Origin: a virus
DNA: 64,000 bases
Reading direction: 5' to 3' (one strand)
IMG/VR virus record: IMGVR_UViG_3300043811_000021
Span: 70,146-134,145 of that record
The position numbers and the translations under genes were made by a program. This document shows positions 8,973-64,000 of the stretch, piece after piece; the stretch's first letter is position 1, and every line of letters starts with the position of its first letter. Below the pieces are notes generated by a model. That model ran no database searches. It worked only from the letters and a program-made list of their open reading frames with translations, and was not told the DNA's origin.

Positions 8973-11837
8973 CTAAACAGGCACTATCTTTCCAGTTGCT
9001 TCATCGTAGACGTGAGTATGTATTGGCCTCGACTGGCTAGACGTATCCATTGGCGCTAATCCTGCATTAGCGAAACTAGATTGCAGTTCCTCAGCTTGTT
9101 TCATTAGTTGCTGTGGATTCGGTTTAGCACTCGATTGTGGTCCAGTCGAATCATCAGGCTTGAATGGCTCTGGTTTCGTACCGTATATTTTTTCGTATAG
9201 TTCGTCTGCCTTTTTCTTCAATTCCTCTGGACTTGGCTTGTTTGCTCCTGTAAATCCAGCGGCTCCCCCTACGATACGAGTTGCAGTCTTTACCGCTGGC
9301 TTATTCAAAAACCTTGTGAGCGCAGGGGATACAGATACGCCTTTACTCTTTGCCGCATCAGCCAGTTTTTGCATATCCTCAGTAAAGAGGGCTTTTTGTT
9401 CTGCGGGAAGTTTGTTGAATTCTTCTACAACTTGAGGAGTAACCTTGGTAATCCATTCTCTTACTCCTGGCTTCTCAAGTATAGATGCAATCATTTGAGT
9501 ACCGCCAAGAACAAGTCCTCCAGCGGCGAATCCGTCTATAATTGCGGATGGAAGAAACCCTCCACTCCCCTTAAACGCCTCTAGACCAGCAAATGCTAAT
9601 CCACTAAGAGTTGCATAGAGGGCGCGTCGTAATCCTGTTTTCTTTAGTTCGTTTCTAACCTCGTCAATGTTCTTATCTATCGTCTGCGAATAATCAATAG
9701 GAGGATTCTTGTCCTTTAACGCATCCTCTGTCCATAGGGTCTTTCCCTGTGGATCGTTTTCTCTCGGCGCATTAGGATTATCTCTTTCTTGTGGCTTACC
9801 CGTAAAAGGTTCAGGGTCTGGTTTTAGACGATAAGCATCTATCGGATGATCCAAACTAGGAGGGGGAATCGGCTGTTTCAGAGATTTTCGGAGTTGGTCC
9901 TCTGTATCAAGGTGCTTCTTTACTTTCTCCCTCTGTGCTTTAACTTTTTCATAGTCTTCGGCAAGCGTAGGATCGTGTTTATTTGCAGCGTCTACTTGTT
10001 TCTGTTCTTGCTTCTCCTTAAACTGTTCAGGATTAGCTCTCTGTTCCATTTCTTCGTCATTGCTAAGTGGCTTATTCTTCTCTATACCAAATGCTTCTTT
10101 GTACTCGCGTGTTGCTTGACGAGCATCATCTAAATCAGAAGACAGTCCATTATCTGCTGCAATCTTAGATTCAGCATTGTATAAAGTTTTTTGCAATTGC
10201 TGCATTTCGCCTAACAAAGGTCCATCATGTCCATATCTTCCATTTCTTATATTTCTTGCGATAATAGATTGAGCGCGATGGATTTTGTCGAATGGTATGT
10301 CAACTCCAGATTTTGGGTCTAGGTCTATCGGGTCTGGAGTTAACCCCTCTGCCGCTACAGCCCTATCCACATTTGCTTTACCAAAATCATCCATGCTATC
10401 GTAGGCAGCTTGCGGTTCTTTGTGCCCCATTGCCTTAAGGATTTCATTCCTCTTTTGCACATACGGAGACCCTTGCTCGGCATCAGAAGGATCGGGGATA
10501 AGTTGATTTATCTCTCTCTGAACCTCTGGAGAAACTTTTCTTATTTTCTCTAGAGGCTGTTCTATGAATCCACCATCTATGGTTTTCGCATCCAATGCCT
10601 GATGAACAGGTTGCCACTTTGCATCAGCAGAGGCTTTTACCTTAGCTTTAGTAGCGTCATTTTTTGCGTAATAGTCTTCGGTCTGCTGCTTTAATTTCGC
10701 TTCCTCTGCACGGCGCAATTCTAATGCATGTTCAGCAGCGTCTCTTTCTCTCTGTATTTTTTCTGAGTCCAGCTTGTGTTTTTCTCTCACAGTATCATTA
10801 TGTTCGTTTACCTTCTTAACTTCCGCATCGTGTGCATCGGAACGCTTACCTAGCTCCTTTAGAGTAGATTCCTTATGTTCAATAGCTTTACCGAGAGCAT
10901 CCTTTCCTACTTCTTTTATCGTCTCTGGACTTGTATTTGTCACTGTGTTTACTAATTTGCGAGGCGCTCCCTTAACCGCGTTGAAAGTACCTACAGGATC
11001 AGAGACTGCCTTTACCGCACCTTCCGTAGCTTTTCCAGCAGCAACCATTCCTAATGCTGTTCCAGCCAAATCTGATACCGCATAACTAGGGTTCTTATCA
11101 GAAAGCTCTTTTAGATGCATAACATAGTTAGGGACCATAGAAGCAGGCATCATTTGAACTAGACTAGCCATTCCCTTAACCGCTGTTCTAGTGTCGTGAG
11201 AAAGTAAATCTTTAGATGCTCCAACAACTTGAGGTATCATGTCAGCAGTACCGAATAATGTATTTGCGAATGATCCGCCTGCATTTAGAACTGTGTCTAC
11301 TGAATTTGCGCCAAAGTTCCACGCTGCCTCTCCTATATTTTTTGTATTAAGATGAGAAGTTGGACGATTCGCCCCAGTAGGCACAGCGGCCTTCGCAAAC
11401 GCCTCTCTTGCCTTGCTCCATAGTCCCGGAGTCGCTTCCACCTCTTCTGGTATAGGAGTCTGCTTTACTACCTTACCGCCCTTAAATAATCTACCTTCCA
11501 AAAGTCCTAGCGGGTCTGCTCCTTTTTCTGCATCAGCGGCAGGTTGAAGTGTTGCAAAACGATCCTTAGCGTAATCTTCGCGCCCTTTTGCGTTTGGAAT
11601 AGTGATCTTATTTGAGAACTTATAACCTGCTTTTCCAGCCTCGTCTACGCGACTGAACGGAACAGGAATCTGCTTTCCATTCGCGTCCTCCATCGCGTAC
11701 AGTCCTTCATTCTCCTTACCTTTTAGCTTGGTAGTGAAGTCAGGAGTGGAAGGGGCAGACGAATCTGGCGAGTCTAAGACATATCCCTGTGGAAGAGACG
11801 ATGCTGCGTCAATTGTGTATCCCTTTGGAACTGCCAT
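8973..11837 (-). CDS. large internal virion (ejection/DNA-transfer) protein
   Basis: 954 aa, helical and Ala/Lys-rich with hydrophobic segments; N-terminal PxGYxxD repeats; follows the tail genes. Confidence 0.6.
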   Translation of the reverse strand: MAVPKGYTIDAASSLPQGYVLDSPDSSAPSTPDFTTKLKGKENEGLYAMEDANGKQIPVPFSRVDEAGKAGYKFSNKITIPNAKGREDYAKDRFATLQPAADAEKGADPLGLLEGRLFKGGKVVKQTPIPEEVEATPGLWSKAREAFAKAAVPTGANRPTSHLNTKNIGEAAWNFGANSVDTVLNAGGSFANTLFGTADMIPQVVGASKDLLSHDTRTAVKGMASLVQMMPASMVPNYVMHLKELSDKNPSYAVSDLAGTALGMVAAGKATEGAVKAVSDPVGTFNAVKGAPRKLVNTVTNTSPETIKEVGKDALGKAIEHKESTLKELGKRSDAHDAEVKKVNEHNDTVREKHKLDSEKIQRERDAAEHALELRRAEEAKLKQQTEDYYAKNDATKAKVKASADAKWQPVHQALDAKTIDGGFIEQPLEKIRKVSPEVQREINQLIPDPSDAEQGSPYVQKRNEILKAMGHKEPQAAYDSMDDFGKANVDRAVAAEGLTPDPIDLDPKSGVDIPFDKIHRAQSIIARNIRNGRYGHDGPLLGEMQQLQKTLYNAESKIAADNGLSSDLDDARQATREYKEAFGIEKNKPLSNDEEMEQRANPEQFKEKQEQKQVDAANKHDPTLAEDYEKVKAQREKVKKHLDTEDQLRKSLKQPIPPPSLDHPIDAYRLKPDPEPFTGKPQERDNPNAPRENDPQGKTLWTEDALKDKNPPIDYSQTIDKNIDEVRNELKKTGLRRALYATLSGLAFAGLEAFKGSGGFLPSAIIDGFAAGGLVLGGTQMIASILEKPGVREWITKVTPQVVEEFNKLPAEQKALFTEDMQKLADAAKSKGVSVSPALTRFLNKPAVKTATRIVGGAAGFTGANKPSPEELKKKADELYEKIYGTKPEPFKPDDSTGPQSSAKPNPQQLMKQAEELQSSFANAGLAPMDTSSQSRPIHTHVYDEATGKIVPV

Positions 11838-21832: not shown

Positions 21833-22138
21833 TTACCTTTTCCAGATATACGACTTCACAAGTCCGCTAGTTGGGCTGTCTGCGATGTAATAGCAAACGG
21901 ATGGCTTCGGACGATATGGTTCTCTGCTTGTTGGAGTCCCTCTCATCATCTCAGTTTGTTTTTCCTTCAGTGGTTGTGCCTCTGTAACAATATCAAGAAG
22001 AGATTTGTCAATCATTCCCGGAACTTGCACGAATTTGTATTGCGGTTCTGATTTACATATATCTGCCAACATTTTCGGTGCAACTACCGCTGCCGCAGCT
22101 CCGATGCCAAGAAACTTGAAAAATCCTCTACGATTCAT
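21833..22138 (-). CDS. Tat-signal-like protein
   Basis: MNRRGFFKFLGIGAAAAVVAPKMLA; AAGGAG RBS before this ATG. Confidence 0.65.
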   Translation of the reverse strand: MNRRGFFKFLGIGAAAAVVAPKMLADICKSEPQYKFVQVPGMIDKSLLDIVTEAQPLKEKQTEMMRGTPTSREPYRPKPSVCYYIADSPTSGLVKSYIWKR

Positions 22139-22304
22139 CCTCTCTCCTTTTGACGCTTGCACTAATCCTACGCTCCTGATCACATCCCGGACAACCTGCT
22201 CCGGGGACGCATAGATGATCTTCGCCAACCGGACCAAGCATGAGGCACCCCATCAATAATTCTTCCCCTGTTATGGGGTCGTATTCGATTGTCTCTGTCA
22301 TCAT

Positions 22305-24696: not shown

Positions 24697-25284
24697 TTAT
24701 GCCTCCCTGTTGTGGTATTCGATTACAAGTTCTTGAAATATAGAGAACGTTTCTCTGGCAATTCTCTTTACCTCTTCATCGCTCGTGTCGATTCGTATCC
24801 ATTCTTTGGCAGTAATTGTTTGCCCCGGCTCAACAGAATCAGCCTGAACGGGAGACCACGCAGCAACATATTTAAGTTCGTTTGTATGCTTATTACGAAT
24901 TGCTTGTCTCACAAATGCAACGTAATTTATATCTGAAAGATCAGTGTGTGTGTGAAAATACATTGGACCCCATGTATTTTCACACGTTGATCCAATTCTC
25001 CCCATTACTTTACATGGATCACCATAATGCCATCCTTTTTTATCTGCACCGTCTTCTACTTCCTGCGGGAATTCTTTTTTAACTTCGTTAAAAATATCAC
25101 ATATACGAAGTTTTCCGTGTCTCATGCGAATTATTGCATAAATCTGTTCTGGTGTATATCCGTATTCCTCTAATTCTATCCGTTCATTCAGATTTTCTTT
25201 GGCGGAATCTGCCAAAATCTTCGGCGCTACCACCGCCGTTGCCGCTACCATTCCCGCTGTCTTCCCAAAATCTCGTCTGTTCAT
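24697..25284 (-). CDS. Tat-signal-like protein
   Basis: MNRRDFGKTAGMVAATAVVAPKILA. Confidence 0.65.
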   Translation of the reverse strand: MNRRDFGKTAGMVAATAVVAPKILADSAKENLNERIELEEYGYTPEQIYAIIRMRHGKLRICDIFNEVKKEFPQEVEDGADKKGWHYGDPCKVMGRIGSTCENTWGPMYFHTHTDLSDINYVAFVRQAIRNKHTNELKYVAAWSPVQADSVEPGQTITAKEWIRIDTSDEEVKRIARETFSIFQELVIEYHNREA

Positions 25285-39964: not shown

Positions 39965-42034
39965 TTAGCTTTCTTTCACCGTAGTACGAGGTGTTCCACC
40001 TGCCCCGCCTTTTTGGGCGATCTTTGGACCTTTTTGCCCACTTGGGGGTCTTCCTCCCGGATGTAATCCACCCTTACCTTTACCGCCTTCTTCTGGTGGC
40101 TGCAGCCCTAGTTTTTGCATTTCAGCAGCAGCTTCCGCAGCACCCAATATGTTTGCCTTGGTAATTTCTGCCTTCTCCTTAAAGTATTTCTCCATTTCCT
40201 GTCGAGGGTTCTGTACGTCCAACTTAGTAAGAACAGTCTCCCAAGAAATCGGGCAATCTGGTGTTCTCTTTAACTGAAGATATTTCAACTGTTCCTTTGC
40301 CTGCGTGATCTTCAACAGTGTGCTCGGAACAGAAATCAATCTCAGTTTCTTTACAAACCATTTTCCTCTAGTCAATTTGTCATACATAGATGGAGTTTTA
40401 GGATATAGACCTCCTACCATTTCTTCTGGAAGATGGCTTGGAACCATATCGTCTGGATTGTAATCAAAAACTTCCCTAGCTATGTTATCTGGTCCGACAT
40501 ACTCAATTAGTCTTTGAGTATCAAACCACTGAGGAATAAGAAACTTAAGTCTTTCTCCTACTCTCTTGTTTGCCTTTTCTATCCTCATCGCAATACCCTT
40601 AGCGACAGGTCCAATAGATTCAATCTGCTTGTCTGCGGTATCGCTGTCCAAATTTATCTTCAAGTTAGCTAAATTTCCAAGATCATTTAGACCTAGCTGC
40701 GCAAGCATCGAATCATTCAAATGCTTTAACCATTCAAAATCTATATTATCAACCGTTACCCCGTCAGGAAGAAGTGATTGAACAGTCTTCCTCGGCTCAT
40801 CCGTACCAAACAATCCTAAACGCACTCCCGAATCAAACGGGTCCCAACGTTCGATTTTCGGACCACCATTTTCATCTGCCTTGTACCCTAAAGGCGGGTC
40901 TTTCTTCGCGCTAATGCATTGGTCCATCAATCTTTCATACTTCCGAATCGTTGTCTGAATAGATGACACATCTCCAACCAACGATCTTCCAGATGGCTCC
41001 CACGGAACGTCATCAACTGTGTACTGAATTATCGGGATACGCGGGTCCCAGTCGAAAGCAGGACCGTCGTACATTGGCCTGTCCAACCCGTTAGAAGAAA
41101 TGATGAGCCGTAAGTTCGGGTACACTCGGCAGTCCTCTGCCATTGCAGGACGCATGTATGGCTGACCATTCCTAATACCTCCAAATATCTGCTGACCAAC
41201 GTAAGGAACTTTATAAAACCATGTAGTCCCAGGGTCACCCATCGGAAGTTCAAAACCTGTATTGTTGATCCTTAAGTCCCTAATAAATGTATATCTTATC
41301 TCTGTATAGAGATTTCCAAAAGACTTCCCTTGGTCATTCAATTCTCCATAGCGATGAGCAGAAGCAAAGTCCTGTCTCTTCGCCTGAATCAAAGACTTAT
41401 AGTTATTCATACCTACTGTCTGTAACTGTCCTTGGAATAATGGGAATCTTCCATACGCCTCTGCAATTGGCATATAGTCATAAACTGTTACCGCATAAGC
41501 ATCCTGTACATCGTTTGACCGTGAAGGGATTTGTACAGGCATCACATCTAGAAGACCAAGAGCGTCAAAGTCCATACTCCTTGGTCCATATCCGTATTCA
41601 GTCGCACGGACTTTCGGCCATAGGTATCCAACACCCATTACCGTGGCATATTGGAGAACTTTCAGAATTTGAAGAGGAAAATCAGATTCGAGATAGACGC
41701 ACTTGGAGACCTTTGTCAGCATCTCAGCCATCTGCTTGTAGGCAGGAATGTCCGATCCAAAAGCAGCAATTTCTCTGACTTCTGCGAGTGTCGTGCAAAA
41801 TTTATTTACGTTATAGCGAAGAAGGTTTGTAACAAGGGAAGATTTAGTTTTATCTTTGAATATCCCATTGAAAACACGCAGGTTAGCAGAAAGATTCTTG
41901 TACGAAGGTTGCCCTTCCAAATACCCTTCTGCCTCGGAAATCTGAGACTCCACCCAGCCAATTTTACGGCTAGGAGATGCTTCAAAAGGAGGGCACTGCC
42001 ATTCTACCGTCTGAATATTTGGATCAAGATACAC
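39965..42034 (-). CDS. portal protein
   Basis: 689 aa, between TerL and scaffold; portal-like segments (TNLLRYNV, GVGYLW, GRSLVGDV..IQ..I); basic Gly/Pro tail. Confidence 0.75.
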   Translation of the reverse strand: MYLDPNIQTVEWQCPPFEASPSRKIGWVESQISEAEGYLEGQPSYKNLSANLRVFNGIFKDKTKSSLVTNLLRYNVNKFCTTLAEVREIAAFGSDIPAYKQMAEMLTKVSKCVYLESDFPLQILKVLQYATVMGVGYLWPKVRATEYGYGPRSMDFDALGLLDVMPVQIPSRSNDVQDAYAVTVYDYMPIAEAYGRFPLFQGQLQTVGMNNYKSLIQAKRQDFASAHRYGELNDQGKSFGNLYTEIRYTFIRDLRINNTGFELPMGDPGTTWFYKVPYVGQQIFGGIRNGQPYMRPAMAEDCRVYPNLRLIISSNGLDRPMYDGPAFDWDPRIPIIQYTVDDVPWEPSGRSLVGDVSSIQTTIRKYERLMDQCISAKKDPPLGYKADENGGPKIERWDPFDSGVRLGLFGTDEPRKTVQSLLPDGVTVDNIDFEWLKHLNDSMLAQLGLNDLGNLANLKINLDSDTADKQIESIGPVAKGIAMRIEKANKRVGERLKFLIPQWFDTQRLIEYVGPDNIAREVFDYNPDDMVPSHLPEEMVGGLYPKTPSMYDKLTRGKWFVKKLRLISVPSTLLKITQAKEQLKYLQLKRTPDCPISWETVLTKLDVQNPRQEMEKYFKEKAEITKANILGAAEAAAEMQKLGLQPPEEGGKGKGGLHPGGRPPSGQKGPKIAQKGGAGGTPRTTVKES

Positions 42035-43860: not shown

Positions 43861-46020
43861 TTAATCATCATCCCCAAATACAGAAATTCTGTTGATCAAG
43901 CACTTCCCCTCATCAGGGTTCTTTTTCTTCGCTTGAGGTACATTATACCTTCTCTGCGCTCTTCCTGAAAGATCATCGTAGGTGTGGCAGTTCAAATAAC
44001 TCTGCGCTGCCGCCCTGATTCTGTCATCATGCTTGTTTTTCTGGTGGGTCATCACATCTCTTCCACCATCTTTCGTCTGTCTCTCAAGAGTCTTCAATTC
44101 CTCAATCAACCATTTTGATCTTGGAATATACCAACCACCGTTAACCGCCTCCACAAAGCGGTCCATAAGAATAGGGACTGTTGTTTTGCTAGAATACCAT
44201 CCTTCACGGTGTTTGTTTTCGTCCTTAATCTTTCTTCCGTCAAGTCTTCCGGGAGTGTGGTGGTAATTGAATCCCATGATCTTTAATTGGTTTTGGCAAG
44301 TATCACCCGGTCCTTCCACCTGCTCAATTGAGAATTTTACTCCCCTTTGGTCTCTGCAACTCTTTCCATACCATGTTGCCATAGCCGCTAGGAAAGGAAC
44401 TGCTTGCGCGGGGCTAAACCGTATAGATGTAAGCTCTGCAACTTGAAGGTCTGCCCCAGAACCACTAGCTACTCTGGTCATAGATGCGCAGAATCTGTCC
44501 TCATCCTCTTTACCAAGTCCATGTGCGGTGTCAACTCCACAACTATACACTGATCTAGGAATTGGAGGTTCAAAAACCAAAAGTTTGTCAAAAGTAAAAC
44601 TCTCTGTCTCCTCATCTATAGGAAGTAGAGGAATCAACTCCCAATCGTATTCCTCACCGCGATTGTTTTCCCAATGCAGCTTTATCCTATCCTTGTAATT
44701 GTCTATGCTTGGATCATCATCATCTGGATAGAACGCTTCTCCTATAGAATGTCCCTTAATCGCGTAGGCTTGCATCGGTTCTCTACGATACTTTGAACCA
44801 TCATTTATATTTACTTCGTATATATCCTCTTCTAGTTCCATGATTGTTTCAGCGTCGAATACGCTGTCATGAACCCCAGTTAGAGCCTCAAAGTCATCTG
44901 CTGGCAATCTAGCGGCGTGTTGCTGTAGAGAGTGGCGTTCTTTCGCTCCTATATACTCAAACTGCCAGAACCACTGCTGTTCAATAGGTACGCAATAGTT
45001 ATAACCTACTACCTTTGCTAGATAGTCTGTATTGCGTATGTATGCTTCACATCTCGCTATATGCGCCTTAGTTGCATCTAATCTTTTTTCATAAAATCCC
45101 GGTGGAACTGGATTAGCTCTCAACCAATCCGATTGAGGATAAAGATCAGTAGCTAGTGGCCATGAGATAAATACTGGACGCATCCTAGAGTGAGGCCAAT
45201 CTCTTTTTTGTGATTTCCAGAAATCCGGGAACCATCCAACATTACCAGAGCCGGTACCCTCAAATACCATGAATAGATTTTTATTCGCGTGGGTAGCAGG
45301 TAACAATCCTTCCTCGATGACATTATGCGGATTAGGGATGATGCCTATCTCCGAAATATGAATATTATTAGGAGTTTGTCCTTGTGCAATACCTTTAGGT
45401 TGCATCCCAGACTCAATCATTAAACGTGAACCATTAGCAAAACTTCTCTTTGGAGTTCTTGCTGGTATCAACCAAAAAGGGCACATTTCGTATGCTGTAT
45501 TTAACTTAATTTCGATCTCTTCTGATTTGGACTTTTGCACAGATGCCATGACAGAAAGAGTGTTCGGAATGAACAGCATCTTGTGAATAAAATATAAAGC
45601 TACGAGAGTTGTGATGCCCACTTGTCGAGCTTTCAGCGTAAGAATCTGAATACCAGCTTGGCGCTCTTCTAGATCTGCCACAACCGCATCAAATACATCT
45701 TGAGAACGGCGATTGGCAAACTTTTTTACCTGCCCACCTTCATCTACGACATAAGAATAATTATCGCGCCAATAATGATAATCCAGACCGCACAAAACTT
45801 GCTCATTTTGAACCCAGCGGCGTATTTCCTGCCGCCTTTTTTCTGTCATGGATGCCACAGAGTCAATCCATGATCCCTTAGAGTTGCTTTCTATTTTTGT
45901 GATTGATTTAATATATGCAGTGAATTCTTGCACCTGTCCTAATGTATGACGCACAGGCTCCCAAGCGTTCTGTGCTGCAAATAACTCTACATTTCGTTCT
46001 ATAATCCTAGTCGAGTACAC
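43861..46020 (-). CDS. terL: terminase large subunit
   Basis: Walker A LKARQVGITT, Walker B IHISE, motif III EGT; RNase H-like nuclease GVDTAHG, IEQ, HDDR. Confidence 0.9.
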   Translation of the reverse strand: MYSTRIIERNVELFAAQNAWEPVRHTLGQVQEFTAYIKSITKIESNSKGSWIDSVASMTEKRRQEIRRWVQNEQVLCGLDYHYWRDNYSYVVDEGGQVKKFANRRSQDVFDAVVADLEERQAGIQILTLKARQVGITTLVALYFIHKMLFIPNTLSVMASVQKSKSEEIEIKLNTAYEMCPFWLIPARTPKRSFANGSRLMIESGMQPKGIAQGQTPNNIHISEIGIIPNPHNVIEEGLLPATHANKNLFMVFEGTGSGNVGWFPDFWKSQKRDWPHSRMRPVFISWPLATDLYPQSDWLRANPVPPGFYEKRLDATKAHIARCEAYIRNTDYLAKVVGYNYCVPIEQQWFWQFEYIGAKERHSLQQHAARLPADDFEALTGVHDSVFDAETIMELEEDIYEVNINDGSKYRREPMQAYAIKGHSIGEAFYPDDDDPSIDNYKDRIKLHWENNRGEEYDWELIPLLPIDEETESFTFDKLLVFEPPIPRSVYSCGVDTAHGLGKEDEDRFCASMTRVASGSGADLQVAELTSIRFSPAQAVPFLAAMATWYGKSCRDQRGVKFSIEQVEGPGDTCQNQLKIMGFNYHHTPGRLDGRKIKDENKHREGWYSSKTTVPILMDRFVEAVNGGWYIPRSKWLIEELKTLERQTKDGGRDVMTHQKNKHDDRIRAAAQSYLNCHTYDDLSGRAQRRYNVPQAKKKNPDEGKCLINRISVFGDDD

Positions 46021-46266
46021 CTATCTCACCATTGTTCTCTTCCCGCGTGGCACCCAGTGTGGTATCAATCCGGTAATCCGTTTCATATATGCAGCATCTG
46101 AATCATCCATCTGCTCTATTAAATCTTCCCAACTATCGAATATGCATTGCCCATCAAAATACAAGAATTGAGCGCAGCATGTATCGTAAAAACAAAACTG
46201 ACGAGACCACTCAGGATCGGTTTCGTCAAGTGCTATTTGCTTACCGAGGTCTATGAATCGTATCAA
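46021..46266 (-). CDS. hypothetical protein
   Basis: GGAGG RBS; lies between the two TerL-like genes. Confidence 0.55.
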   Translation of the reverse strand: MIRFIDLGKQIALDETDPEWSRQFCFYDTCCAQFLYFDGQCIFDSWEDLIEQMDDSDAAYMKRITGLIPHWVPRGKRTMVR

Positions 46267-46348
46267 TTAGCCTCCGCCATATCGTAAATCTTACCAGCAG
46301 ATAGGAGCCACGGTGATGTCTTTGCTATGTCAGTAAGTTGGATCATCC

Positions 46349-47584
46349 TTAGATTTCTTTCCTTCTTGCCAAAGCAACTTTTTCCTGAATGGTTTTAGAG
46401 TCTGGAAAAATCTCGTCTAGTTCTATATCCTCGGTGACATCTTTCTTATTGTCCCCGTCATCTGGAGGGAACCTTATCAGGAAATCCTCTAGATTTTTGC
46501 GATCCTCTGCTTGTTTATACCCATCTTCCCACCACCATTGCTGCTCAGTCGGCATTTCCCAATGATCTCCCATAATCTTAGACAGGTACGGAGTGCTACG
46601 GATGAAGTTCTCGCAGCGCTTTTTGTGCTCTATCGTTATATCATTAGGTTTCCAATCGTTAGGAATCGGGTATGCCTTCAACCAATCTGGTTGTGGGTAG
46701 ATGTCAGTTGACACAACCCACGGAATAAACACAGGGCATAACCTTGAAAATCCTTTAGGCCAATACTCTTTGGCTGATCGATACGCATCTGTAAACCATC
46801 CATTTTCGGTCACTTTATTACCGTGTAATACAAGGAATGTGTTGCTCGATGAGAATACTGCTCTCAATAAACCCTCTTCAATCACTCTCGTTGGGTTAGG
46901 AATAGACTCGATATTGGTTACATATACTGCGTTCGGAGTGAATCCCTGCGCCAAACCAGTTTTTTGACTAGTAGATTGTACAGATAATCCAGACCCGTTG
47001 TTAAACTTTCCCTTATTGTTTTTAATTGGAATTAACCACCAAGGAAGTTTATCGTATGCTTTATCTATAAAGCTTGTTATTAAAGTGGATTTTTCGTGAG
47101 TAACGGATGCCACAATTGAATGAGTGTTAGGGGAAAATAATAGGCGATGCATTATTTTTAGCATTACCTTGGTAAAAACTCCGCTTTGACGCGATCCGAG
47201 AATCAGAAGTTCTATCGATGATCCTCTATCTTCCAAGTCTGAAATGATTAAGTCAAGAACTTCCTGAGACTTTCTATTTTTGAATTTTGTAATTGTTCCG
47301 CACTCATTAACTATGTACGCATATCGGCTCTCAAAATATCCGCTGTCAATCGCGCACATAGCCTGCTCGTTTTCAACCCACCTTTTTATTTCTTTTTGCC
47401 TTTTTGATGAAATTGGTTTTACCGATTCAATCCATGAATTCTTCGAGTTACTTCCTATCTCTACAGTCAAGTTGATGTACGCCTTAAACTCGTTTACCTC
47501 ATCCAAAGAATGTGGAGTTGGCATCCATCCTTCTCTTGCGGCGAAAGCATCGAGTGTTTCTTGAATCTTTTTCTGTGAATACAT
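46349..47584 (-). CDS. truncated TerL paralog (ATPase domain only, degenerate active site)
   Basis: colinear with the N-terminal half of TerL; motifs changed to LGSRQSGVFT, VYVTN, HGN; AGGAG RBS. Confidence 0.85.
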   Translation of the reverse strand: MYSQKKIQETLDAFAAREGWMPTPHSLDEVNEFKAYINLTVEIGSNSKNSWIESVKPISSKRQKEIKRWVENEQAMCAIDSGYFESRYAYIVNECGTITKFKNRKSQEVLDLIISDLEDRGSSIELLILGSRQSGVFTKVMLKIMHRLLFSPNTHSIVASVTHEKSTLITSFIDKAYDKLPWWLIPIKNNKGKFNNGSGLSVQSTSQKTGLAQGFTPNAVYVTNIESIPNPTRVIEEGLLRAVFSSSNTFLVLHGNKVTENGWFTDAYRSAKEYWPKGFSRLCPVFIPWVVSTDIYPQPDWLKAYPIPNDWKPNDITIEHKKRCENFIRSTPYLSKIMGDHWEMPTEQQWWWEDGYKQAEDRKNLEDFLIRFPPDDGDNKKDVTEDIELDEIFPDSKTIQEKVALARRKEI

Positions 47585-47592
47585 ATTATCTC

Positions 47593-48480
47593 CTATCCTT
47601 CTAGTAACCTCTGCCTTATCGGAACCAGTTTTTCTTGCACTTCGTTAGGGCTTGGGAATAGATCATCAAACCCATCCTTACTCTCGTATGAAGCGTCTAC
47701 TGTCTTACCGTCTTCATCATCATCTCCACCTCTCCCGTTAGCATTAAGATTATTCTGATTCAGATTAATGGTAGTCTTCTGCCCGCTCGGCTTAGGTAAT
47801 ATACCAACAGTAATATCCAAGGCTGTTCTGTCTTTCTCTGCTCCTACATGTTCGAGTCCGAAGTTTACTCTTGCTTTCGTTATCGCAGGATGATTCGATA
47901 CAGCTATAAACCTACTCCTATTCCAGCAGTGAGATTCAACAGACAGCCGTATTGCACCTAAAAGATGCTTAGGATTGACTTTCGCTTTAATGGCAATTGC
48001 TTCCCAAGGGATTCTTTTCCTATCTTCAATAGGAACCTTATCGTATACCTTCAAAAACTCTCTTATATCAGAATCTTCTGTAGAAAAACGCATAGCCTCA
48101 AGAGCAGATTTTAATCCGCCCTTGAGGTCTCTTTTAATAATAGGAGTAATCTTCGGTGCCGATGCCAATACTTCAGGCTTTACCCTCAACCTCTTCAGTG
48201 CTTGTTCCGACCTCTTCTGTAGGTCCGACAATTTCGGGACTTGCAGGAGAGATTTGTCTTTCTTTGGCATGATCTCTAAGGTACTGCCTGGTTCGTTCTC
48301 CGATGTACTCATCGTCATCTTCTTCAATGTCTGGGTCAACAATTTCTTGGATGGTTCTTCTTCTTGCGCCTTGGTTTTTTCTTTCTCTCTCTTCTTCGCT
48401 TTCGACACGGGTGAGCTTTGTTTCTCTTTGTTCTCTTGGCTCTGGCCAGTATCGAGTTCCTGCTCTTCGAGTTGACTCAT
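47593..48480 (-). CDS. terminase small subunit candidate (start may be 48270)
   Basis: upstream of the TerL genes; helical and HTH-like (WEAIAIKAKV); C-terminal TTINLNQN strand. Confidence 0.45.
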   Translation of the reverse strand: MSQLEEQELDTGQSQENKEKQSSPVSKAKKREKEKTKAQEEEPSKKLLTQTLKKMTMSTSENEPGSTLEIMPKKDKSLLQVPKLSDLQKRSEQALKRLRVKPEVLASAPKITPIIKRDLKGGLKSALEAMRFSTEDSDIREFLKVYDKVPIEDRKRIPWEAIAIKAKVNPKHLLGAIRLSVESHCWNRSRFIAVSNHPAITKARVNFGLEHVGAEKDRTALDITVGILPKPSGQKTTINLNQNNLNANGRGGDDDEDGKTVDASYESKDGFDDLFPSPNEVQEKLVPIRQRLLEG

Positions 48481-57734: not shown

Positions 57735-58755
57735 CCCAAAACAGCTATCCGAACTACTCGCCGCAATGATTCCTGCGCGTTTACCGCTACTCGTTACAGG
57801 CGCGCCGGGCGTAGGCAAGTCAGACATAATCAGCCAATCCGCGCATGAGGCGCAAGCTGATTTGATCATTAGCCACCCCGCTGTAGCAGATCCTACAGAC
57901 TTTAAGGGTTTGCCATGGCCTGTACAGGGAGCGGACTCGGCAACGTTTCTTCCCTTCGGAGAACTGTCCAAGGCAATCAATGCCACCCGTTCTACGGTAT
58001 GGTTTTTTGACGATCTTGGACAGGCTTCGCCAGCGGTACAGGCTGCATGTATGCAACTATTCCTAGCGCGTAGGGTGAACGGGCACGTTCTCCCTGATTG
58101 CGTGACGTTTGTAGGCGCAACAAACCGGAGAACCGACAGAGCCGGAGTTTCCGGCATCCTTGAGCCGGTAAAATCCCGCTTCGCCGCGATTGTCGAGTTA
58201 GAGGCAGACACTGACTCATGGTGTCAATGGGCTTTCAATCATTCCGTTTCGCCTACGCTCATTGCATTTTTGCGTTTTAAGCCTGATATGCTTTGCGCGT
58301 TCGCGGCAACGGCGGATTTGACTAACTCCCCCGTCCCGCGTACCTGGGGACACGTTGCCAAACTCGAAGCATTGAACCTCTCGCCTATAATCGAGTCCGC
58401 TGCTTTCGCGGGAGCGGTAGGGGAAGGCGCGGCGATTGAGTACATTGCCTTCCGTAAAATGGCACGGTCTCTTACCAGCATCGATGCGATTCTCTTGAAT
58501 CCCGATAAAGTCAAGATTCCGAGTAATATTGATGAACTGTACGCGACTACCATCGGCCTAGCGTCACGCGCAAACGAGACGAATTTTCCGAGAATTGCAA
58601 CCTATGCAAACCGGCTAGTAACTGAAGTCGATAAGGGCGAATTCGCTGCGCTGTTAGTCCGGGACGCTATCCGCCGGGACGAGAAAATCCAGTACACCGA
58701 TGCGTTTGTTCGGCTGAATTCCGGCGAGTTTGGCCAGCTTATTTCAGGAAAATAA
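57724..58755 (+). CDS. MoxR-like AAA+ ATPase
   Basis: GAPGVGKS, DPTDFKGLP, FFDDL, GATNR, SRF, PRTW. Confidence 0.9.
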   Translation: MSVNPKQLSELLAAMIPARLPLLVTGAPGVGKSDIISQSAHEAQADLIISHPAVADPTDFKGLPWPVQGADSATFLPFGELSKAINATRSTVWFFDDLGQASPAVQAACMQLFLARRVNGHVLPDCVTFVGATNRRTDRAGVSGILEPVKSRFAAIVELEADTDSWCQWAFNHSVSPTLIAFLRFKPDMLCAFAATADLTNSPVPRTWGHVAKLEALNLSPIIESAAFAGAVGEGAAIEYIAFRKMARSLTSIDAILLNPDKVKIPSNIDELYATTIGLASRANETNFPRIATYANRLVTEVDKGEFAALLVRDAIRRDEKIQYTDAFVRLNSGEFGQLISGK

Positions 58756-58817
58756 CCTCTTGATAGGGAGTCAACCGTTACCAGATCGTAACTGGAATTT
58801 ATATGGGAGTGTGAGTT

Positions 58818-59684
58818 ATGACCACAGCAGATCTTCACACACGCGCTATGCTTGTTTCGCTTCGCATCAGCGCATGGAGCGCAAGGAAGTATGACCGCAA
58901 GGTATCAGCCGATACCGCTGCCGCGCACGGAACTACCCTTGACGCGGGCCGGTACAATAAACACTTGTTACCTGGGGACGCGCCAGCGTATAAGGCGTTA
59001 GTTTCCCATATTGCCAACCTGCGAGTTAATCACTACGCACAGACTCTCGCATGGTCCGATGACGGATGGCGTCTCCTGCCCGTGAAAAACTACACGGCAT
59101 ACACCGATATGCTCCGAGCTGGATTCCATACCGCCGATTCCTTGCTTGCTGACTTCGCCGTCGAATACCCATCCTTGCGCCTTGAGGCAAAGCGCATTCT
59201 GAACGGAATGTATCAAGACACTGATTACCCGTCTGACATCCGAGCGAAGTATCAATGGGGAGTCGAATACGCTCCTGTTCCGTGCGGCGCGGATTTTCGC
59301 GTTACTCTCTCCGCTGAAGAGATTGAAACCATCGCGGCACGGACTGAAGCCCGCGTCAAGCAAGCATTTTCAGACGCACATAAAGACGCGGTATCCCGTC
59401 TCTATAAATGCGTCTCGAACATTCACGAACGTTTGGCGCAGCCAGATGCTATCTTCCGGGACTCGCTCATCGGCAATGCACGGGAGCTGTGCGATGTTCT
59501 TTCCCGCTTGAATCTCACCGATGATACGATCTTGGAAACCGTTCGCAAGCAGACTGAAATGCTTGCTACTACGGAACCAGCAACGCTCCGCAACGTTCCA
59601 GAAGTCCGCTCAGACGTGGCACAGCAAGCGCAGTCAATCCTTGACGCCATGACCGCAACGTACGGTAACATTTTCAGCAATTAG
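58818..59684 (+). CDS. DUF3150-like helical protein
   Basis: MLVSLRISAWSARKYD...TLAWSDDGWRLLP...DYP; typical partner of phage AAA/VWA pairs. Confidence 0.65.
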   Translation: MTTADLHTRAMLVSLRISAWSARKYDRKVSADTAAAHGTTLDAGRYNKHLLPGDAPAYKALVSHIANLRVNHYAQTLAWSDDGWRLLPVKNYTAYTDMLRAGFHTADSLLADFAVEYPSLRLEAKRILNGMYQDTDYPSDIRAKYQWGVEYAPVPCGADFRVTLSAEEIETIAARTEARVKQAFSDAHKDAVSRLYKCVSNIHERLAQPDAIFRDSLIGNARELCDVLSRLNLTDDTILETVRKQTEMLATTEPATLRNVPEVRSDVAQQAQSILDAMTATYGNIFSN

Positions 59685-59693
59685 GGGGAGTCA

Positions 59694-60803
59694 ATGTCCG
59701 CACAGTCAAAGATGGTATCCGCTAGAACGTCTTTAATCCTTGAGTCCCCGTTTTTCGGGCATCTGGCCTTGAGTCTCAATCTTAAGGCCGATACCGGATG
59801 TGAAACCGCATGGGTAGACGGTCGGACCCTGGGATACAATCCAGCGTTTATCGAGTCCTTACCGCATGAACAAATCACCGCGTTAATAGCGCATGAAGTC
59901 ATGCACTGCGCGTTAGGTCATCCGTGGCGCAGAGACGGGCGCAATTCCTACGGGTGGAACGTGGCCGCAGATCGTGCAATCAATCACGATCTTAAAGGCT
60001 CTGGTTTCAAACTTCCCCCCGGAGCACTTTATCCCTCGGCAGATGAGGAAGGCAAGTCCGCAGAGTGGATTTACGCCAGACAAGACGAAAATCAGGACGG
60101 CAACGGGAAAAGCAAACCAGACCCGCTCGGAGAACTGAGAGACGCGCCTAACGGTCCCGATGAAGACGGGAATCCCGCTCCGTCCGAGCAGGACTGGAAA
60201 CAGAAAATGGCTGAAGCGCTCAATAGCGCGAAAATGGCCGGTAAGGTTCCTGGGGGACTCGCCAGACTCGTTAAAGAGGCATTGCGTCCCCGCGTTGACG
60301 TTCGCTCTCTACTCTTGCGGTTTTTCAGTGAGCGGTCTAACGCCGATTACTCATGGTCCCGGCCTAACAGTCGATACATCGCACAGGGACTATATCTCCC
60401 CTCACTGGAATCATCGGCGTTAGGCGAGATAGCTGTTCTCTGTGACACATCGGGGAGTGTGGACGAAACGAGTCTCGCCTATGCGAGATCAATCCTTGAG
60501 CAAGTCTTAGACGAGGTAAACCCTGCCGGAGTCACACTGTACATGGTGGACACTGAAGTCCATACCGTCCACAGGATGGAACGGGGAGACCTTTTGACAT
60601 GGGAACCAAAAGGGGGAGGGGGGACCGATTTTAGCTCATTCTTCGAGACGGTAGAGACTGGCGATATTCAGCCTGTATGCGTTATCGGTATCAGTGACCT
60701 GTATGCGAATTTCGGCGAAACGGTCCCATCGGTCCCCGTGCTATGGCTATCGACTACAGATATGATTGCGCCGTTTGGAGAAACGGTCTCGCTGCCCGTC
60801 TAG
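59694..60803 (+). CDS. DUF2201-type metallopeptidase + VWA domain protein
   Basis: PFFG, TAWVDG, AHEVMH, WNVAAD, DTSGS MIDAS, GGGGTDF. Confidence 0.88.
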   Translation: MSAQSKMVSARTSLILESPFFGHLALSLNLKADTGCETAWVDGRTLGYNPAFIESLPHEQITALIAHEVMHCALGHPWRRDGRNSYGWNVAADRAINHDLKGSGFKLPPGALYPSADEEGKSAEWIYARQDENQDGNGKSKPDPLGELRDAPNGPDEDGNPAPSEQDWKQKMAEALNSAKMAGKVPGGLARLVKEALRPRVDVRSLLLRFFSERSNADYSWSRPNSRYIAQGLYLPSLESSALGEIAVLCDTSGSVDETSLAYARSILEQVLDEVNPAGVTLYMVDTEVHTVHRMERGDLLTWEPKGGGGTDFSSFFETVETGDIQPVCVIGISDLYANFGETVPSVPVLWLSTTDMIAPFGETVSLPV

Positions 60804-60810
60804 CTCTTCC

Positions 60811-60836
60811 TAGGGGAGTCCAGACGGATTCCCCTA
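60811..60836 (+). terminator. hairpin after the VWA gene
   Basis: TAGGGG(G)AGTCC-AGAC-GGATTCCCCTA inverted repeat, no U-tract. Confidence 0.35.
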
Positions 60837-60870
60837 CACTCTAAACCCTAACCAGAATGGAGAATGTCCG

Positions 60871-61155
60871 ATGAAACTGTTTAACATAGTCTACCTAACT
60901 GTTCTATTGGTCCTAGCCATCTTTGGGACCGCGTTCAACGTCCAATCTAAACGCTCCGATGCGTACATGATGGCGCAGATCAATGCACAAGACTTGATAC
61001 CTCACCTCAAACCATTAACCGTACGTTCCGGCTTAGGACCATTTACCAGCCACAGACGATACATCCGCGACACATCAGAAAACCGGAAGATTTACCATGC
61101 TTACTGGATCATACGTCCGGGGGATGGCTATTTGTACTCGGCATGGTGGGAATAG
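60871..61155 (+). CDS. hypothetical protein with N-terminal TM/signal
   Basis: MKLFNIVYLTVLLVLAIFGTAF; GGAG RBS. Confidence 0.55.
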   Translation: MKLFNIVYLTVLLVLAIFGTAFNVQSKRSDAYMMAQINAQDLIPHLKPLTVRSGLGPFTSHRRYIRDTSENRKIYHAYWIIRPGDGYLYSAWWE

Positions 61156-61231
61156 CCTCTAGTGGCATCCTAGCGCCAGCAAAGCGCATCTTAGCAAGCA
61201 TAGGTAAGCATTACCAGAATGCGATGCAAGC

Positions 61232-61384
61232 ATGATCAATCCAATGCGCGACTGTATGGCGCGATTCAAAGATGCGCCGATACCTGCTTTCAAGTATGGT
61301 CTATCAGGCATCGGCATCGTGTACGGCATGAGTGGAGCGCTGCTCCTATGGGCAATAGCCGTACTGGTAATCATTTTCCTGTAA
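61232..61384 (+). CDS. small membrane protein (not in ORF track)
   Basis: ...GLSGIGIVYGMSGALLLWAIAVLVIIFL. Confidence 0.4.
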   Translation: MINPMRDCMARFKDAPIPAFKYGLSGIGIVYGMSGALLLWAIAVLVIIFL

Positions 61385-61396
61385 ACGAGGTGACAC

Positions 61397-61591
61397 ATGG
61401 AACGCAAAGAAGACGCAATCCGCACAGCAGCGGTCTTATTCAAGCAAGCATGGACCAATGCCAGCGAGACAACTTACACACTGCCTACGGCTCCGCCCGA
61501 AGATCAATACTCAATCGCCGTCATCCTGGGATGCCATGAGAACTACCTGCACCATGCCAAGATCGTATGGTCTGGGCTACTCACGGCATAA
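61397..61591 (+). CDS. hypothetical protein
   Basis: GAGGTG RBS. Confidence 0.55.
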   Translation: MERKEDAIRTAAVLFKQAWTNASETTYTLPTAPPEDQYSIAVILGCHENYLHHAKIVWSGLLTA

Positions 61592-61660
61592 CCTGTTTCA
61601 CGTTGTTTGATAGCGAGTCAAAACTTTTCACAGTCCTACGCGCATAGGAGGCGCGAACTA

Positions 61661-61837
61661 ATGACCGAGCAAGGATGGTACTGGGTTTATCTGGGTCGTA
61701 ACTGGTACATGGGATACTTCGATCCTAAAACCAATTCCGTGCGGGCTAGGGGCGCAATCTACGGAGTGGAAGCGGTCAAGAAATTCGAGGGACCGCTGCT
61801 CCCGCCAGATGAGCGCATAACTGTCCTGTCAGACTAG
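61661..61837 (+). CDS. hypothetical protein (GWYWV...GPLLPP type)
   Basis: AGGAGG RBS before MTEQGWYWV. Confidence 0.55.
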   Translation: MTEQGWYWVYLGRNWYMGYFDPKTNSVRARGAIYGVEAVKKFEGPLLPPDERITVLSD

Positions 61838-61973
61838 CATCTTGATAGGCAACCAAAGGGAATTACGTCTTTTACTCCCTTGTCCACAACATTTCCTCAT
61901 TTTCTTCTTGACATTCGTGCGGGGATCAACTACCTTAAATACATGAGGCAACCAGCCTCCCGGAGACGGTAAA

Positions 61974-62336
61974 ATGAGTGGACGTAGACGCATCAAACGC
62001 AACGACGGTCGCAGCCCTTCACAGTCAGCCACAGAAAAGCGCCTCACCCCTTCAGACATTCGTCGCAGAGAAGCCCGCAAGGCAGAGCGTTCCGCTCTCG
62101 CCGCACAAGGGATGCTGCCCCAACAACCCAAGGCGTTCCGTTGCTTCGTCAACCGCCAGCAGCCAAACGACGCCATCTTTGAATCGCCAAATAGCCAACA
62201 GGATTTGAACAAGGAAATGTGCTCCCACTGGATTGAGACACCAAGTGAACATGTTGGCAATCGTCTCGCTGTCGCAGTCAATAACATGGAACTGTGGGCG
62301 GAAGAGCTTGTTGCTTCCGGGTGGATGCGCCTGTGA
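61974..62336 (+). CDS. IS passenger hypothetical protein
   Basis: GGAG RBS; inside the TIRs; overlaps the transposase start. Confidence 0.55.
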   Translation: MSGRRRIKRNDGRSPSQSATEKRLTPSDIRRREARKAERSALAAQGMLPQQPKAFRCFVNRQQPNDAIFESPNSQQDLNKEMCSHWIETPSEHVGNRLAVAVNNMELWAEELVASGWMRL

Positions 62337-63250
62337 GCCGCTCCACGATAAGCACCTTTCAGCTTTTCGAGATGTTCCCCGATGAGGAGACAGCGCGGCT
62401 CTACCTGGAGTCGCGCCTCTGGCCTAAAGGCGTGACCTGTCCCACTTGTGCCGGTCAGGACCGCATCACTCCACGCAAGGCTGGCTTCCACCGCTGCAAT
62501 AAGTGCCAACTTGACTTCACGATCCGTACTGGCACGATCTTCGAGCGCAGTCACATCCCGTTGCACAAGTGGCTTTACGCCATGTACTTGCTTGTCACCG
62601 CTCGCAAGGGAATATCTTCCATGCAGATCGCCAAAGAGCTCGGTGTACAGCAGAAAAGCGCATGGTTCATGCTTCATCGGCTCCGCGAGGCTTGCGGCGG
62701 CGAACTCGCCAAATTGCAAGGAATTGTCGAAGCCGATGAAGCCTTTTTTGGAGGCAAAGAAGCCAACAAACACGAGTCGAAGAAGCTCCGCGCCGGTCGC
62801 GGCTCTGTCGGCAAGACGGCGGTTGTGGGGCTGAGGGAGCGCGGCGGTCGCACCATCGCCTATCCCGTCCCGAACACAGACAAAGAGTGCTTGCAGGGTG
62901 CGGTCCTGAATAACGTCGAAGTCGGCACCCAATTGATGACCGATGAATCGACTGGCTACGCTGGAATTGGCGGTCTTTTTTTCGGCCATGAAACCGTGAA
63001 CCACAGCGCCGGAGAGTACAGCCGGGGAGATGTGAACACGAACTCTATCGAGAGCGTTTGGGCGGTAATGAAGCGCGGAATGTACGGCGTGTACCATCAC
63101 GCCAGCCCCAAACACCTGCACCGCTATGTGGACGAATTCACCTTCCGCTTGAATAATGGGGACGTGAAACGGCACACGCTGGACCGGCTCGATAGCTTCA
63201 TCAGAGCTGTTGACGGCAAGCGTCTGACCTACGCGAGGTTGATCCAATGA
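62294..63250 (+). CDS. IS1595-family (ISXO2-like) DDE transposase (start probably GTG 62333)
   Basis: RLWPKG.CP.C...C..C Zn ribbon, HTH, VEADE, LMTDE, VNHS, NTNSIES.W, YVDEFTFR. Confidence 0.95.
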   Translation: MGGRACCFRVDAPVSRSTISTFQLFEMFPDEETARLYLESRLWPKGVTCPTCAGQDRITPRKAGFHRCNKCQLDFTIRTGTIFERSHIPLHKWLYAMYLLVTARKGISSMQIAKELGVQQKSAWFMLHRLREACGGELAKLQGIVEADEAFFGGKEANKHESKKLRAGRGSVGKTAVVGLRERGGRTIAYPVPNTDKECLQGAVLNNVEVGTQLMTDESTGYAGIGGLFFGHETVNHSAGEYSRGDVNTNSIESVWAVMKRGMYGVYHHASPKHLHRYVDEFTFRLNNGDVKRHTLDRLDSFIRAVDGKRLTYARLIQ

Positions 63251-63384
63251 AGACTCCAAAGGTGCTCGATAAGATGGCCGATATTGTGCTTGCATACCGG
63301 CCTCCAGAGAAGCAAAAACCACCACGAACGCGAAAGAAATCCACAAAGCGGGTAACTCAAGATGAATCAACGAAACGGGAGTAA
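63247..63384 (+). CDS. small basic IS passenger ORF (not in ORF track)
   Basis: MKTPKVLDKMADIVLAYRPPEKQK...; ATGA-coupled; stop lies within the right TIR. Confidence 0.6.
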   Translation: MKTPKVLDKMADIVLAYRPPEKQKPPRTRKKSTKRVTQDESTKRE

Positions 63385-63428
63385 AGTACGTAAATCCCCA
63401 ACCAAAACCAACACGGGAGAACACGTTT

Positions 63429-63794
63429 ATGGAATACGGAATCCTTGTAGCTGAAAGCGAAGACGGTCAGTATCAGGTCATCGGCGCGGTCGATTCTATC
63501 GATGAAGCGCGAGAACTGGCAGAGAAATATCTGGTCCGTGCCGTTGATAGCGGATCAATCGCACCAGATCGCTTTGTAATCCATCGGCGCGGTGAATGGG
63601 GATGGTACACAGTCCGCGAACCTTTGGAACTAGACCCAGATGACAAGACAGCCCAAGAGATCGCAGAGCGTCTTCTGGGAATCAAAACTCTCGAAACCCG
63701 CAACTCAGACAGCTTAGACTTTCACTCTGTCTCTGTCTGGAAACTTAAGGCCGCGCTCAAAGCAGCATGGAAGGCTGGGAAAGAATCTCAATAG
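63429..63794 (+). CDS. protein with C-terminal DUF6900-like domain
   Basis: EIAERLLGIKTLETRNSDSLDFHSVSVWKLKAALKAAWKAG. Confidence 0.7.
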   Translation: MEYGILVAESEDGQYQVIGAVDSIDEARELAEKYLVRAVDSGSIAPDRFVIHRRGEWGWYTVREPLELDPDDKTAQEIAERLLGIKTLETRNSDSLDFHSVSVWKLKAALKAAWKAGKESQ

Positions 63795-63848
63795 CCTTTG
63801 ATAGCGGTCCAACGTCAACCCATAACAGATTTTCAGGAGAATACGCCA

Positions 63849-64000
63849 ATGGTTACCGTGACAGTGACATTCAAACGACTCAACCCAAAGACTCCGAGCG
63901 CATGGGATGCCACGGCAGCAGCCTACGCACAGAGTACCGGCAAAGACTTTGAGGCACTGCCGCTGTCCGAGCAAGTACGGCTCATTCGTGAACGGGTCGC
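63849..64000 (+). CDS. hypothetical protein, 3' truncated by the window edge
   Basis: AGGAG RBS; MVTVTVTFKRLNPK..., open to the end of the window. Confidence 0.5.
   Translation, partial: MVTVTVTFKRLNPKTPSAWDATAAAYAQSTGKDFEALPLSEQVRLIRERV

Follow-up and report, generated by a model that had tools for sequence, protein, structure and literature searches.

The stretch of viral DNA analysed here (the window) makes up the final 64 kb of the virus record IMGVR_UViG_3300043811_000021, which is 134,145 bp long and is rated complete by CheckV. On its minus strand, at 46349..47584, lies an open reading frame (ORF) whose product of 411 amino acids (aa) is a nuclease-less paralog of the large terminase subunit (TerL) encoded in the same window. 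We report that this paralog has kept the fold of the TerL ATPase, that it has lost the residues of the catalytic centre, and that it ends in a peptide also present at the end of the protein encoded directly upstream, at the position of the small terminase subunit (TerS). Our preferred reading, to which we give a probability of about 0.55, is that the paralog, selected and non-catalytic, assists or modulates the TerS-TerL interface, and that it would act by binding and not by hydrolysis.

Residues 1-401 of the paralog align with residues 1-395 of the window TerL (719 aa, GTG start, ATPase and nuclease domains; 43861..46020, minus strand), with 179 identities over 403 positions (44%, E = 3e-121, BLASTP). 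This is far beyond chance and bears out the end-to-end match to the ATPase half of TerL that had been claimed from the sequence alone. The alignment ends just past a Pro-Asp-Asp (PDD) shared by the two proteins. A model of the paralog built with AlphaFold2 had a predicted local distance difference test score (pLDDT) of 87.7 and a predicted template modelling score of 0.84. When this model was compared with the PDB using Foldseek, the ATPase domain of T4 gp17 (2o0j) came out on top (E = 2.5e-10), followed by the TerLs of T7, P74-26, PhiV-1 and HK97. By model and by structural matches, the paralog has the RecA-like TerL ATPase fold. This degenerate TerL-type domain corresponds to residues 1-376 (46457..47584, minus strand) and ends at the conserved PDD hinge. 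A phmmer search of the short ORFs with TerL residues 401-719 gave no match to the RNase H-like nuclease domain.

The window TerL itself matches PHROG 2 and 5989, annotated as 'terminase large subunit', and a profile of its family matched T4 gp17 over a span that includes Walker A and Walker B. In the profile alignment, ARQVGITT corresponds to SRQLGKTT of gp17 (Walker A) and IHISE to IYIDE (Walker B and the catalytic Glu, E224 being the counterpart of gp17 E256). Every catalytic motif of the window TerL is intact. It follows from this alignment that the TerLs of the clade have Ile at the position of the gp17 P-loop Lys; they possess an invariant Lys (K130) two residues N-terminal of the Arg. 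The active site of these enzymes is unusual in itself, with a Walker A of the form K-x-R-Q-x-G-[ILVMC]-[ST]-[TS] in which the Lys is shifted N-terminally (TerL residues 130-138), and with Ser at the position of the gp17 Walker B Asp (H-[ILV]-S-E, TerL residues 220-224). The resulting spacing, K-x4-G-x-[ST], is presumably that of lambda gpA, and E254-G-T256 presumably corresponds, by name and by role, to motif III or the C-motif.

In the paralog, Gly replaces K130, Asn replaces E224, and His-Gly-Asn stands in place of E254-G-T256. The alterations of Walker A, Walker B and motif III pointed out by the sequence-only reading are therefore real, and the gp17 profile alignment confirms that the motifs had been correctly named. 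A large protein search gave 147 matches, 120 of which were listed, and the family counts that follow refer to the 120 matches listed. Twenty-four of these are short, at 403-431 aa, and 96 are of TerL type; 94 of the latter are 631-720 aa long, and the remaining two, of 436 and 499 aa, are shorter and have TerL motifs. The P-loop Lys and the motif-III Thr were each found in none of the 24 short homologs, the Walker B Ser-Glu in a single one (P0010) and the motif-III Glu likewise in one (P0014), with His in its place in 19 of 24. All of these residues are present in the 96 TerL-type homologs and in the window TerL. Of the TerL residues within 1-275 with a conservation of 97% or higher, the short family has kept 33 and lost nine, namely K130, M158, H221, E224, L249, E254, T256, G257 and G259. 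Kept residues include R132, Q133 and G135 of the P-loop, together with the Q107 motif. We conclude from the alignments that the catalytic centre of the short family is selectively dismantled, and the paralog would on this basis be catalytically dead.

The C-terminus of the paralog lies 35 residues past the PDD hinge. In the complete short proteins, the segment beyond the hinge consists of an acidic linker followed by a peptide of the form [DE]x[LIM][DE]x[LIVF]FPx[PSA]xxxQ[EK]K[VLM]..., with a degenerate Leu-Ser at the Phe-Pro position in the protein of one locus (L114). In the paralog this tail occupies residues 387-411 (...DIELDEIFPDSKTIQEKVALARRKEI; 46352..46426, minus strand). The 295-aa protein encoded immediately upstream (47593..48480, minus strand) has the C-terminal end ...DDLFPSPNEVQEKLVPIRQRLLEG, and its tail (...DGFDDLFPSPNEVQEKLVPIRQRLLEG) is encoded at 47596..47670 on the same strand. 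In a six-frame regular-expression scan of the window, the motif was found at two C-termini only, those of the paralog and of the 295-aa protein. A hidden Markov model (HMM) built from the TerS-like tails alone recognised the C-termini of 22 of the 24 short proteins at E <= 1e-3 (best E = 1.9e-11), as well as those of 17 paralog ORFs in the loci described below; run against 11,069 sequences, it matched no TerL. F275, P276 and Q282 of the TerS-position protein are invariant among the 40 members of its alignment (A3), and Phe, Pro and Gln are the invariant tail residues of both families. The sequence-only reading was thus right in placing the stop at the hinge, and what it had described as a short acidic tail is an acidic linker plus a conserved peptide. 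Since this tail is homologous to that of the TerS-position protein, the paralog can be regarded as a chimera between an apparently dead TerL ATPase domain and that tail. In the literature searched, supplements apart, we found no account of an inactive TerL paralog that carries a tail of the TerS type. Nuclease-less TerL copies are, as a kind, already published, and the new points are the shared docking tail and the optional cassette.

A co-fold with TerL had been proposed as a check on the paralog, and its residues 360-411 pass it. With full-length TerL (alignment A2) and this segment (alignment A1), the interaction prediction score from aligned errors (ipSAE) was 0.62, 0.69 and 0.67 in three runs (median 0.67), compared to 0.00 in all three controls. 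The mark applied is reached by 58 of 80 solved complexes and by 2 of 110 mismatched pairs, counts that hold roughly here, the alignments being user-built. Agreement between the runs is at least 56% of contacts, with a partner pLDDT of 55 or more. In the predicted interface, tail residues 387-409 contact TerL residues 10-18, 52-79, 149-152, 182-186 and 195-196, so that the candidate tail-binding groove is comprised within TerL residues 10-196 (45433..45993, minus strand). The pairs of lowest predicted error involve tail residues 393, 394, 399, 400 and 403, and the contacts include invariant tail residues. On the groove side, F14, Q74, F150, W183, L184, P186 and N196 are conserved in TerL and in the short family alike. 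The prediction supports binding of the paralog tail to the N-terminal helices of TerL. It agrees, by analogy, with lambda and P22, in which the C-terminal region of TerS binds TerL according to a review (PMC9611059).

The distribution of the paralog was analysed in 162 fetched loci, which together with the window form 98 clusters (at least 97% identity over at least 1.5 kb). Fifteen clusters carry the paralog, 57 have a tailed protein followed by TerL without it, 12 have neither within at least 3 kb upstream, and 14 are uninformative. The paralog is thus found in 15 of 84 informative clusters (one of the 15, L113, is cut at its 3' end and is uncertain). This proportion is, if anything, an overestimate, because similarity to the short protein decided the ranking in both scans. 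In all loci with flanks, the gene for the tailed protein comes first; the paralog begins 8-20 nt further on (444 nt in L114), and TerL follows. The exception is L024, in which the paralog (10153-11385) directly follows TerL and still has the tail (IFPNPIDIQNK).

Two loci show the state with and without the gene on a nearly identical background. L001, which has the paralog, and L037, which does not, are 99.8% identical over 8 kb, beginning within the last codons of the paralog; where L001 has the 1,269-nt cassette, L037 has 7 nt. The sequence that flanks the L001 paralog on its 3' side is the one found 3' of the TerS-position gene in L037 and L010, which argues that the cassette is gained or lost cleanly between two tail-coding segments. 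A comparison of L001 with L086 gave a nonsynonymous divergence (dN) of 0.003 for the paralogs and 0.092 for the adjoining TerLs (synonymous divergence, dS, saturated). Nearly identical paralogs beside differing TerLs indicate that the packaging module is mosaic and subject to modular exchange. The clade that carries the paralog consists of roughly 130-kb soil and peat phages. Among genome contigs, only two distant TerLs were found (in a Planctomycetaceae and a Gallionellaceae metagenome-assembled genome), neither with a paralog, and the named-phage collection contained only two distant relatives, the Tunturiibacter phages Tunturi_1 and Tunturi_2, at 28% identity. Among viral contigs, loci were found with an alignment as query and none with a single protein.

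The short family is well conserved. Its alignment (A1) has 37 invariant columns and a mean column identity of 59%, and the 24 intact homologs reach down to 42% identity. The dN/dS ratio, estimated by the Nei-Gojobori method (NG86), was 0.060-0.104 in the 16 of 136 pairs that were usable (0.02 < dS < 2.5), dS being saturated or undefined for most distant pairs; the comparison with TerL dN/dS is confounded by mosaicism and inteins. Relatives and dN/dS were the checks put forward with the claim that the gene is under selection and not in decay, and both speak for it: instead of a gene unique to this genome and evolving neutrally, the outcome that would have told against the claim, a single clade of intact homologs was found.

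The short rows group as one clade in two analyses, with support of 99 in the SH-like approximate likelihood ratio test (SH-aLRT) under LG+G4 (107 rows) and of 100 under LG+C20 with posterior mean site frequencies (62 rows). The first tree was obtained from 202 rows thinned to 108 at >=85% identity within each class, with one duplicate of the window protein removed; the second contains all 24 short rows and 38 TerL rows picked by hand. A single origin of the short family is therefore supported by these trees. Left free, the trees place the short clade within the TerLs of the group, with support of 95 in the first and 57 in the second analysis, and in the approximately unbiased test a tree with all 36 ingroup TerLs together and the short clade outside was not rejected (p = 0.415). 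Terminal branches in the LG+G4 tree are 0.3-0.9 for the short family compared to 0.1-0.2 for TerL, or about three to four times longer. The chimera would be explained by a single tandem duplication, one of whose breakpoints precedes the TerS tail while the other falls at the hinge of TerL. We considered this as an idea only: the 81-aa gene that precedes TerL should then be present twice, and no second copy was seen.

The protein at the TerS position has a disordered N-terminus rich in Lys, Ser and Pro, a helical core (residues 87-224), an acidic, Gly-rich linker and the C-terminal docking peptide. In its AlphaFold2 model, the pLDDT of the core is above 90 and a C-terminal helix is present. Such an architecture would suit a TerS. 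The relatives are tailed proteins of 220-305 aa encoded directly upstream of TerL or of the short paralog: the tailed protein is followed by TerL in 57 clusters (sometimes with the 81-aa gene between), and the paralog is present too in 15. This is the position of a TerS gene, and we regard the 295-aa protein as a putative small terminase. Two weak leads were obtained, namely an Atlas lead to T5_Terminase_small (0.90) and, in a wide VIA-align search, a match of residues 132-182 to helix-turn-helix proteins (best Z 4.2).

How might such a protein act? Under the preferred reading, the nuclease half of a TerL-derived paralog would have been replaced by an acidic linker and the docking peptide of the TerS-position protein. 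The paralog tail (F393, P394, Q400 and a helix at 396-409) would dock in the groove formed by the TerL N-terminal helices, presumably the same groove as that used by the identical motif of the small subunit, and the paralog's own conserved groove could in turn accept TerS tails. Placed in this way, the paralog would sit in the TerS-TerL interface, compete at it or bridge it, and so modulate the assembly or the timing of the terminase. It could serve as an adaptor or as a brake, and bridging, buffering and inhibition all fit. ATPase activity is presumably absent. A regulator or non-catalytic partner of the packaging enzyme had been among the roles suggested earlier, and this one fits best, given the TerS-type tail and the co-fold on TerL. 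A more specific version may be envisaged, which we put forward tentatively: one peptide, carried by both the TerS-like protein and the dead ATPase, would fit the grooves of TerL and of its dead copy, and the resulting chain from TerS through the pseudo-ATPase to TerL would make the paralog an optional third subunit that tunes the recruitment of TerL to DNA.

Several observations weigh against the preferred reading. The docking score is the model's own confidence and not a measurement, and the docked peptide is that of the paralog, so that use of the same site by the TerS tail would be an extrapolation from motif identity. Conservation of the groove in the short family is 0.69, compared to 0.63 for the rest of the domain, which is not significant (one-sided Mann-Whitney p = 0.09). 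An acidic residue is found two positions past the lost Glu in most short homologs and, with R132, Q133, G135 and Q107 kept, nucleotide binding or a residual activity is conceivable. Among the 40 TerS-position members, searches of Pfam and PHROG families at E <= 0.01 gave no match except that of one member to an unnamed PHROG, and Foldseek searches of the PDB and BFVD with the TerS-position protein gave none at E <= 0.001. With no confirming family or fold, the TerS assignment rests on position and tail. Finally, optional presence would also be expected of counter-defence or exclusion genes.

The last point leads to a competitive inhibitor or exclusion factor, whose tail would cap TerL grooves, or whose groove would soak up TerS tails, as a timing brake of the phage's own or as a poison for co-infecting relatives. 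It draws on the same binding evidence as the preferred reading (co-fold and tail HMM), the tail motif is common to the whole clade, which makes cross-reaction with relatives plausible, and the patchy distribution of the cassette and the mosaic pairing with TerL (L001, L086) fit a conflict gene. Such a factor would, however, not spare the TerS and TerL of its own phage; no difference between self and non-self was found in tail or groove, and the gene lies in the packaging operon right behind the TerS-position gene, with overlap of stop codon and ribosome-binding site, as for a co-produced partner. We consider it doubtful. Less probable again is a decoy or sponge for immunity, by which the paralog would mimic the TerL ATPase domain and occupy sensors (Avs1-3, Upx) without activating them. 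Its model does resemble PhiV-1 TerL as bound to Avs3 (8dgc_E, Foldseek E = 6.4e-5), an accessory distribution fits, and Upx is a conceivable target, since in PMC13601566 it is modelled to bind unfolded ATPase strands, for which catalytic residues are not needed. The same paper reports that Avs3 reads active-site residues and bound ATP, and that in EcAvs2 a bridging ATP contacts the ATP of the terminase and its Mg shell (PMC13601566); the Lys, Glu and Thr by which these features are held are precisely the residues missing from the paralog. Moreover, binding to a sensor normally activates it: T4 Vs.8, in which the Walker motifs are kept, activates EcAvs2 rather than blocking it (PMC13601566). 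A decoy would also leave the conserved TerS-type tail without a role, and no paper on a TerL decoy against Avs was found in the literature search. The Avs-decoy proposal of the sequence-only reading is thereby disfavoured.

The same reading had suggested a subunit of a heteromeric motor, that is, an obligate non-catalytic member of the TerL ring comparable to the alternating catalytic and non-catalytic subunits of other ATPase rings. In its favour, the ATPase fold is conserved over its full length, P-loop residues R132, Q133 and G135 included, and the gene and TerL lie together. The phage that is 99.8% identical downstream and lacks the gene (L037) speaks against it, as do the 57 of 84 informative clusters that lack it too. 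Near-identical phages without the paralog imply that the motor works without it, which weakens the proposal and makes an obligate subunit quite unlikely. As for a neutral remnant of a partial duplication, now decaying, the long terminal branches are what one would expect of it. The idea is refuted by the 24 intact homologs, the 37 invariant columns and the dN/dS of 0.06-0.10, and is also at odds with the conserved replacement of the motif-III Glu by His (19 of 24) and with the conserved tail; we regard it as scarcely credible. The non-catalytic modulator of the TerS-TerL interface thus remains the reading that we prefer.

Comparable genes have been described in other phages. Rak2-like jumbo phages (CBB_274) and the Sinorhizobium phages phiM12 and phiN3 have a 'truncated large terminase' adjoining terL, which PMC5259590 notes as unusual and as having no known function. 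The likeness, as defined from PMC5259590, lies in a second, incomplete TerL-domain gene beside a complete terL, and such a gene is present here. Compared by description, the family reported here differs from these copies in its family-wide catalytic loss, its optional presence and its TerS-position tail. As the paralog arose from the clade's own TerL, an origin independent of the Rak2-like copies is probable. A second parallel is T4 Vs.8, which PMC13601566 describes as a stand-alone TerL-ATPase-like protein that activates EcAvs2 and whose function is unknown. Like the paralog, it is a nuclease-less TerL-ATPase-like protein encoded besides TerL. In T4 (AF158101), however, Vs.8 is 219 aa long, its Walker A (GGRQSGKS) and Walker B (IIDE) are intact, and it lies far from gene 17, whereas the members of the paralog family have about 411 aa, have lost the Lys and the Glu, lie in the terminase operon and carry a TerS-type tail. 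Specific kinship between the short family (A1) and T4 Vs.8 was not found by hhalign (probability 0.7%).

With the ATPase domain of T4 gp17 (2o0h, 2o0j, 3cpe), the paralog shares the fold (Foldseek E = 2.5e-10 to 1.6e-9), and the RQxG core of the gp17 P-loop and its upstream R/Q motif can be aligned with the paralog clade. It differs from a TerL of the gp17 type by the absence of the P-loop Lys, the catalytic Glu, the motif-III Thr and the nuclease domain. The tails of lambda gpNu1 and P22 gp3 resemble the one described here in their arrangement, a short C-terminal segment after a flexible linker (PMC9611059); here, the co-fold predicts that the segment binds TerL in its N-terminal part. In the present clade, the segment is found on a TerL-derived pseudo-ATPase as well as on the TerS-position protein. 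Taken together, the family probably represents a separate origin of a kind already known, and its shared tail hints at how it may work.

Nuclease-less copies of the TerL ATPase that look inactive recur in unrelated phages (Rak2-like, T4 Vs.8), and the shared peptide gives a concrete handle on their role. The peptide, its predicted site on TerL and near-isogenic phages that differ in the presence of the gene make it possible to test directly for a role in binding or regulation. The tail may also provide a means to recognise the small terminase in groups of phages with no detectable TerS family. If tail-in-groove docking is general, other phages may likewise have obtained connector or regulator subunits on their own, in the form of their 'truncated terminases'.

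On the minus strand of the window, the genes follow each other in the order 295-aa ORF, 411-aa ORF, 81-aa ORF, 719-aa TerL and, further on, a portal-like ORF (39965..42034). The strong ribosome-binding site claimed for the paralog is present: AGGAG (47590..47594) lies five bases 5' of its ATG and overlaps the stop codon (TAG, 47593..47595) of the upstream TerS-position gene. The paralog had also been described as next to TerL. Coordinates and strands were right, and direct adjacency was not, a conserved gene for a Cys-rich 81-aa protein (46021..46266, minus strand; TTG start with GGAGG upstream) lying between the cassette and TerL. By phmmer, this 81-aa protein has homologs in 38 other loci (E = 1e-28 to 1e-42); each is encoded directly upstream of TerL, whether or not the paralog is present, and by this conservation the ORF is a genuine gene. 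In relatives, this gene and the tailed gene that precedes it overlap, by the start of the one and the stop codon of the other.

The TerLs of some relatives presented further peculiarities. Three TerL genes encode 982-1084 aa (L088:2281-5535, L090:4222-7476 and L161:2117-5065) and are intein candidates; weak matches to Hint, intein-splicing and LAGLIDADG domains were found in them, and they probably contain inteins. In other relatives, a nuclease-only TerL paralog of about 242-259 aa is encoded downstream of TerL (L147:4410-5138; L148 and L149:9220-9948; L114:11284-12033; L034:3404-4153; L061:5677-6456). In L147-L149, L114 and L034 it lies directly 3' of TerL; in L061 the distance is about 1.7 kb. 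The L147 copy is 41% identical to the nuclease domain of the adjoining TerL (E = 2e-35), its catalytic acidic residues are altered, and its N-terminus has a weak match to a twin-arginine translocation (Tat) signal. A search for such a nuclease-only paralog in the window's genome found none. The Tat-like leader of L147 does match the N-termini of two unrelated window ORFs, 21833..22237 and 24697..25284 (both minus strand), with 65% and 50% identity over about 33 residues. Lastly, the G+C content rises from about 0.43-0.48 to 0.52-0.55 in window positions 58001..64000, which are also the end of the virus record.

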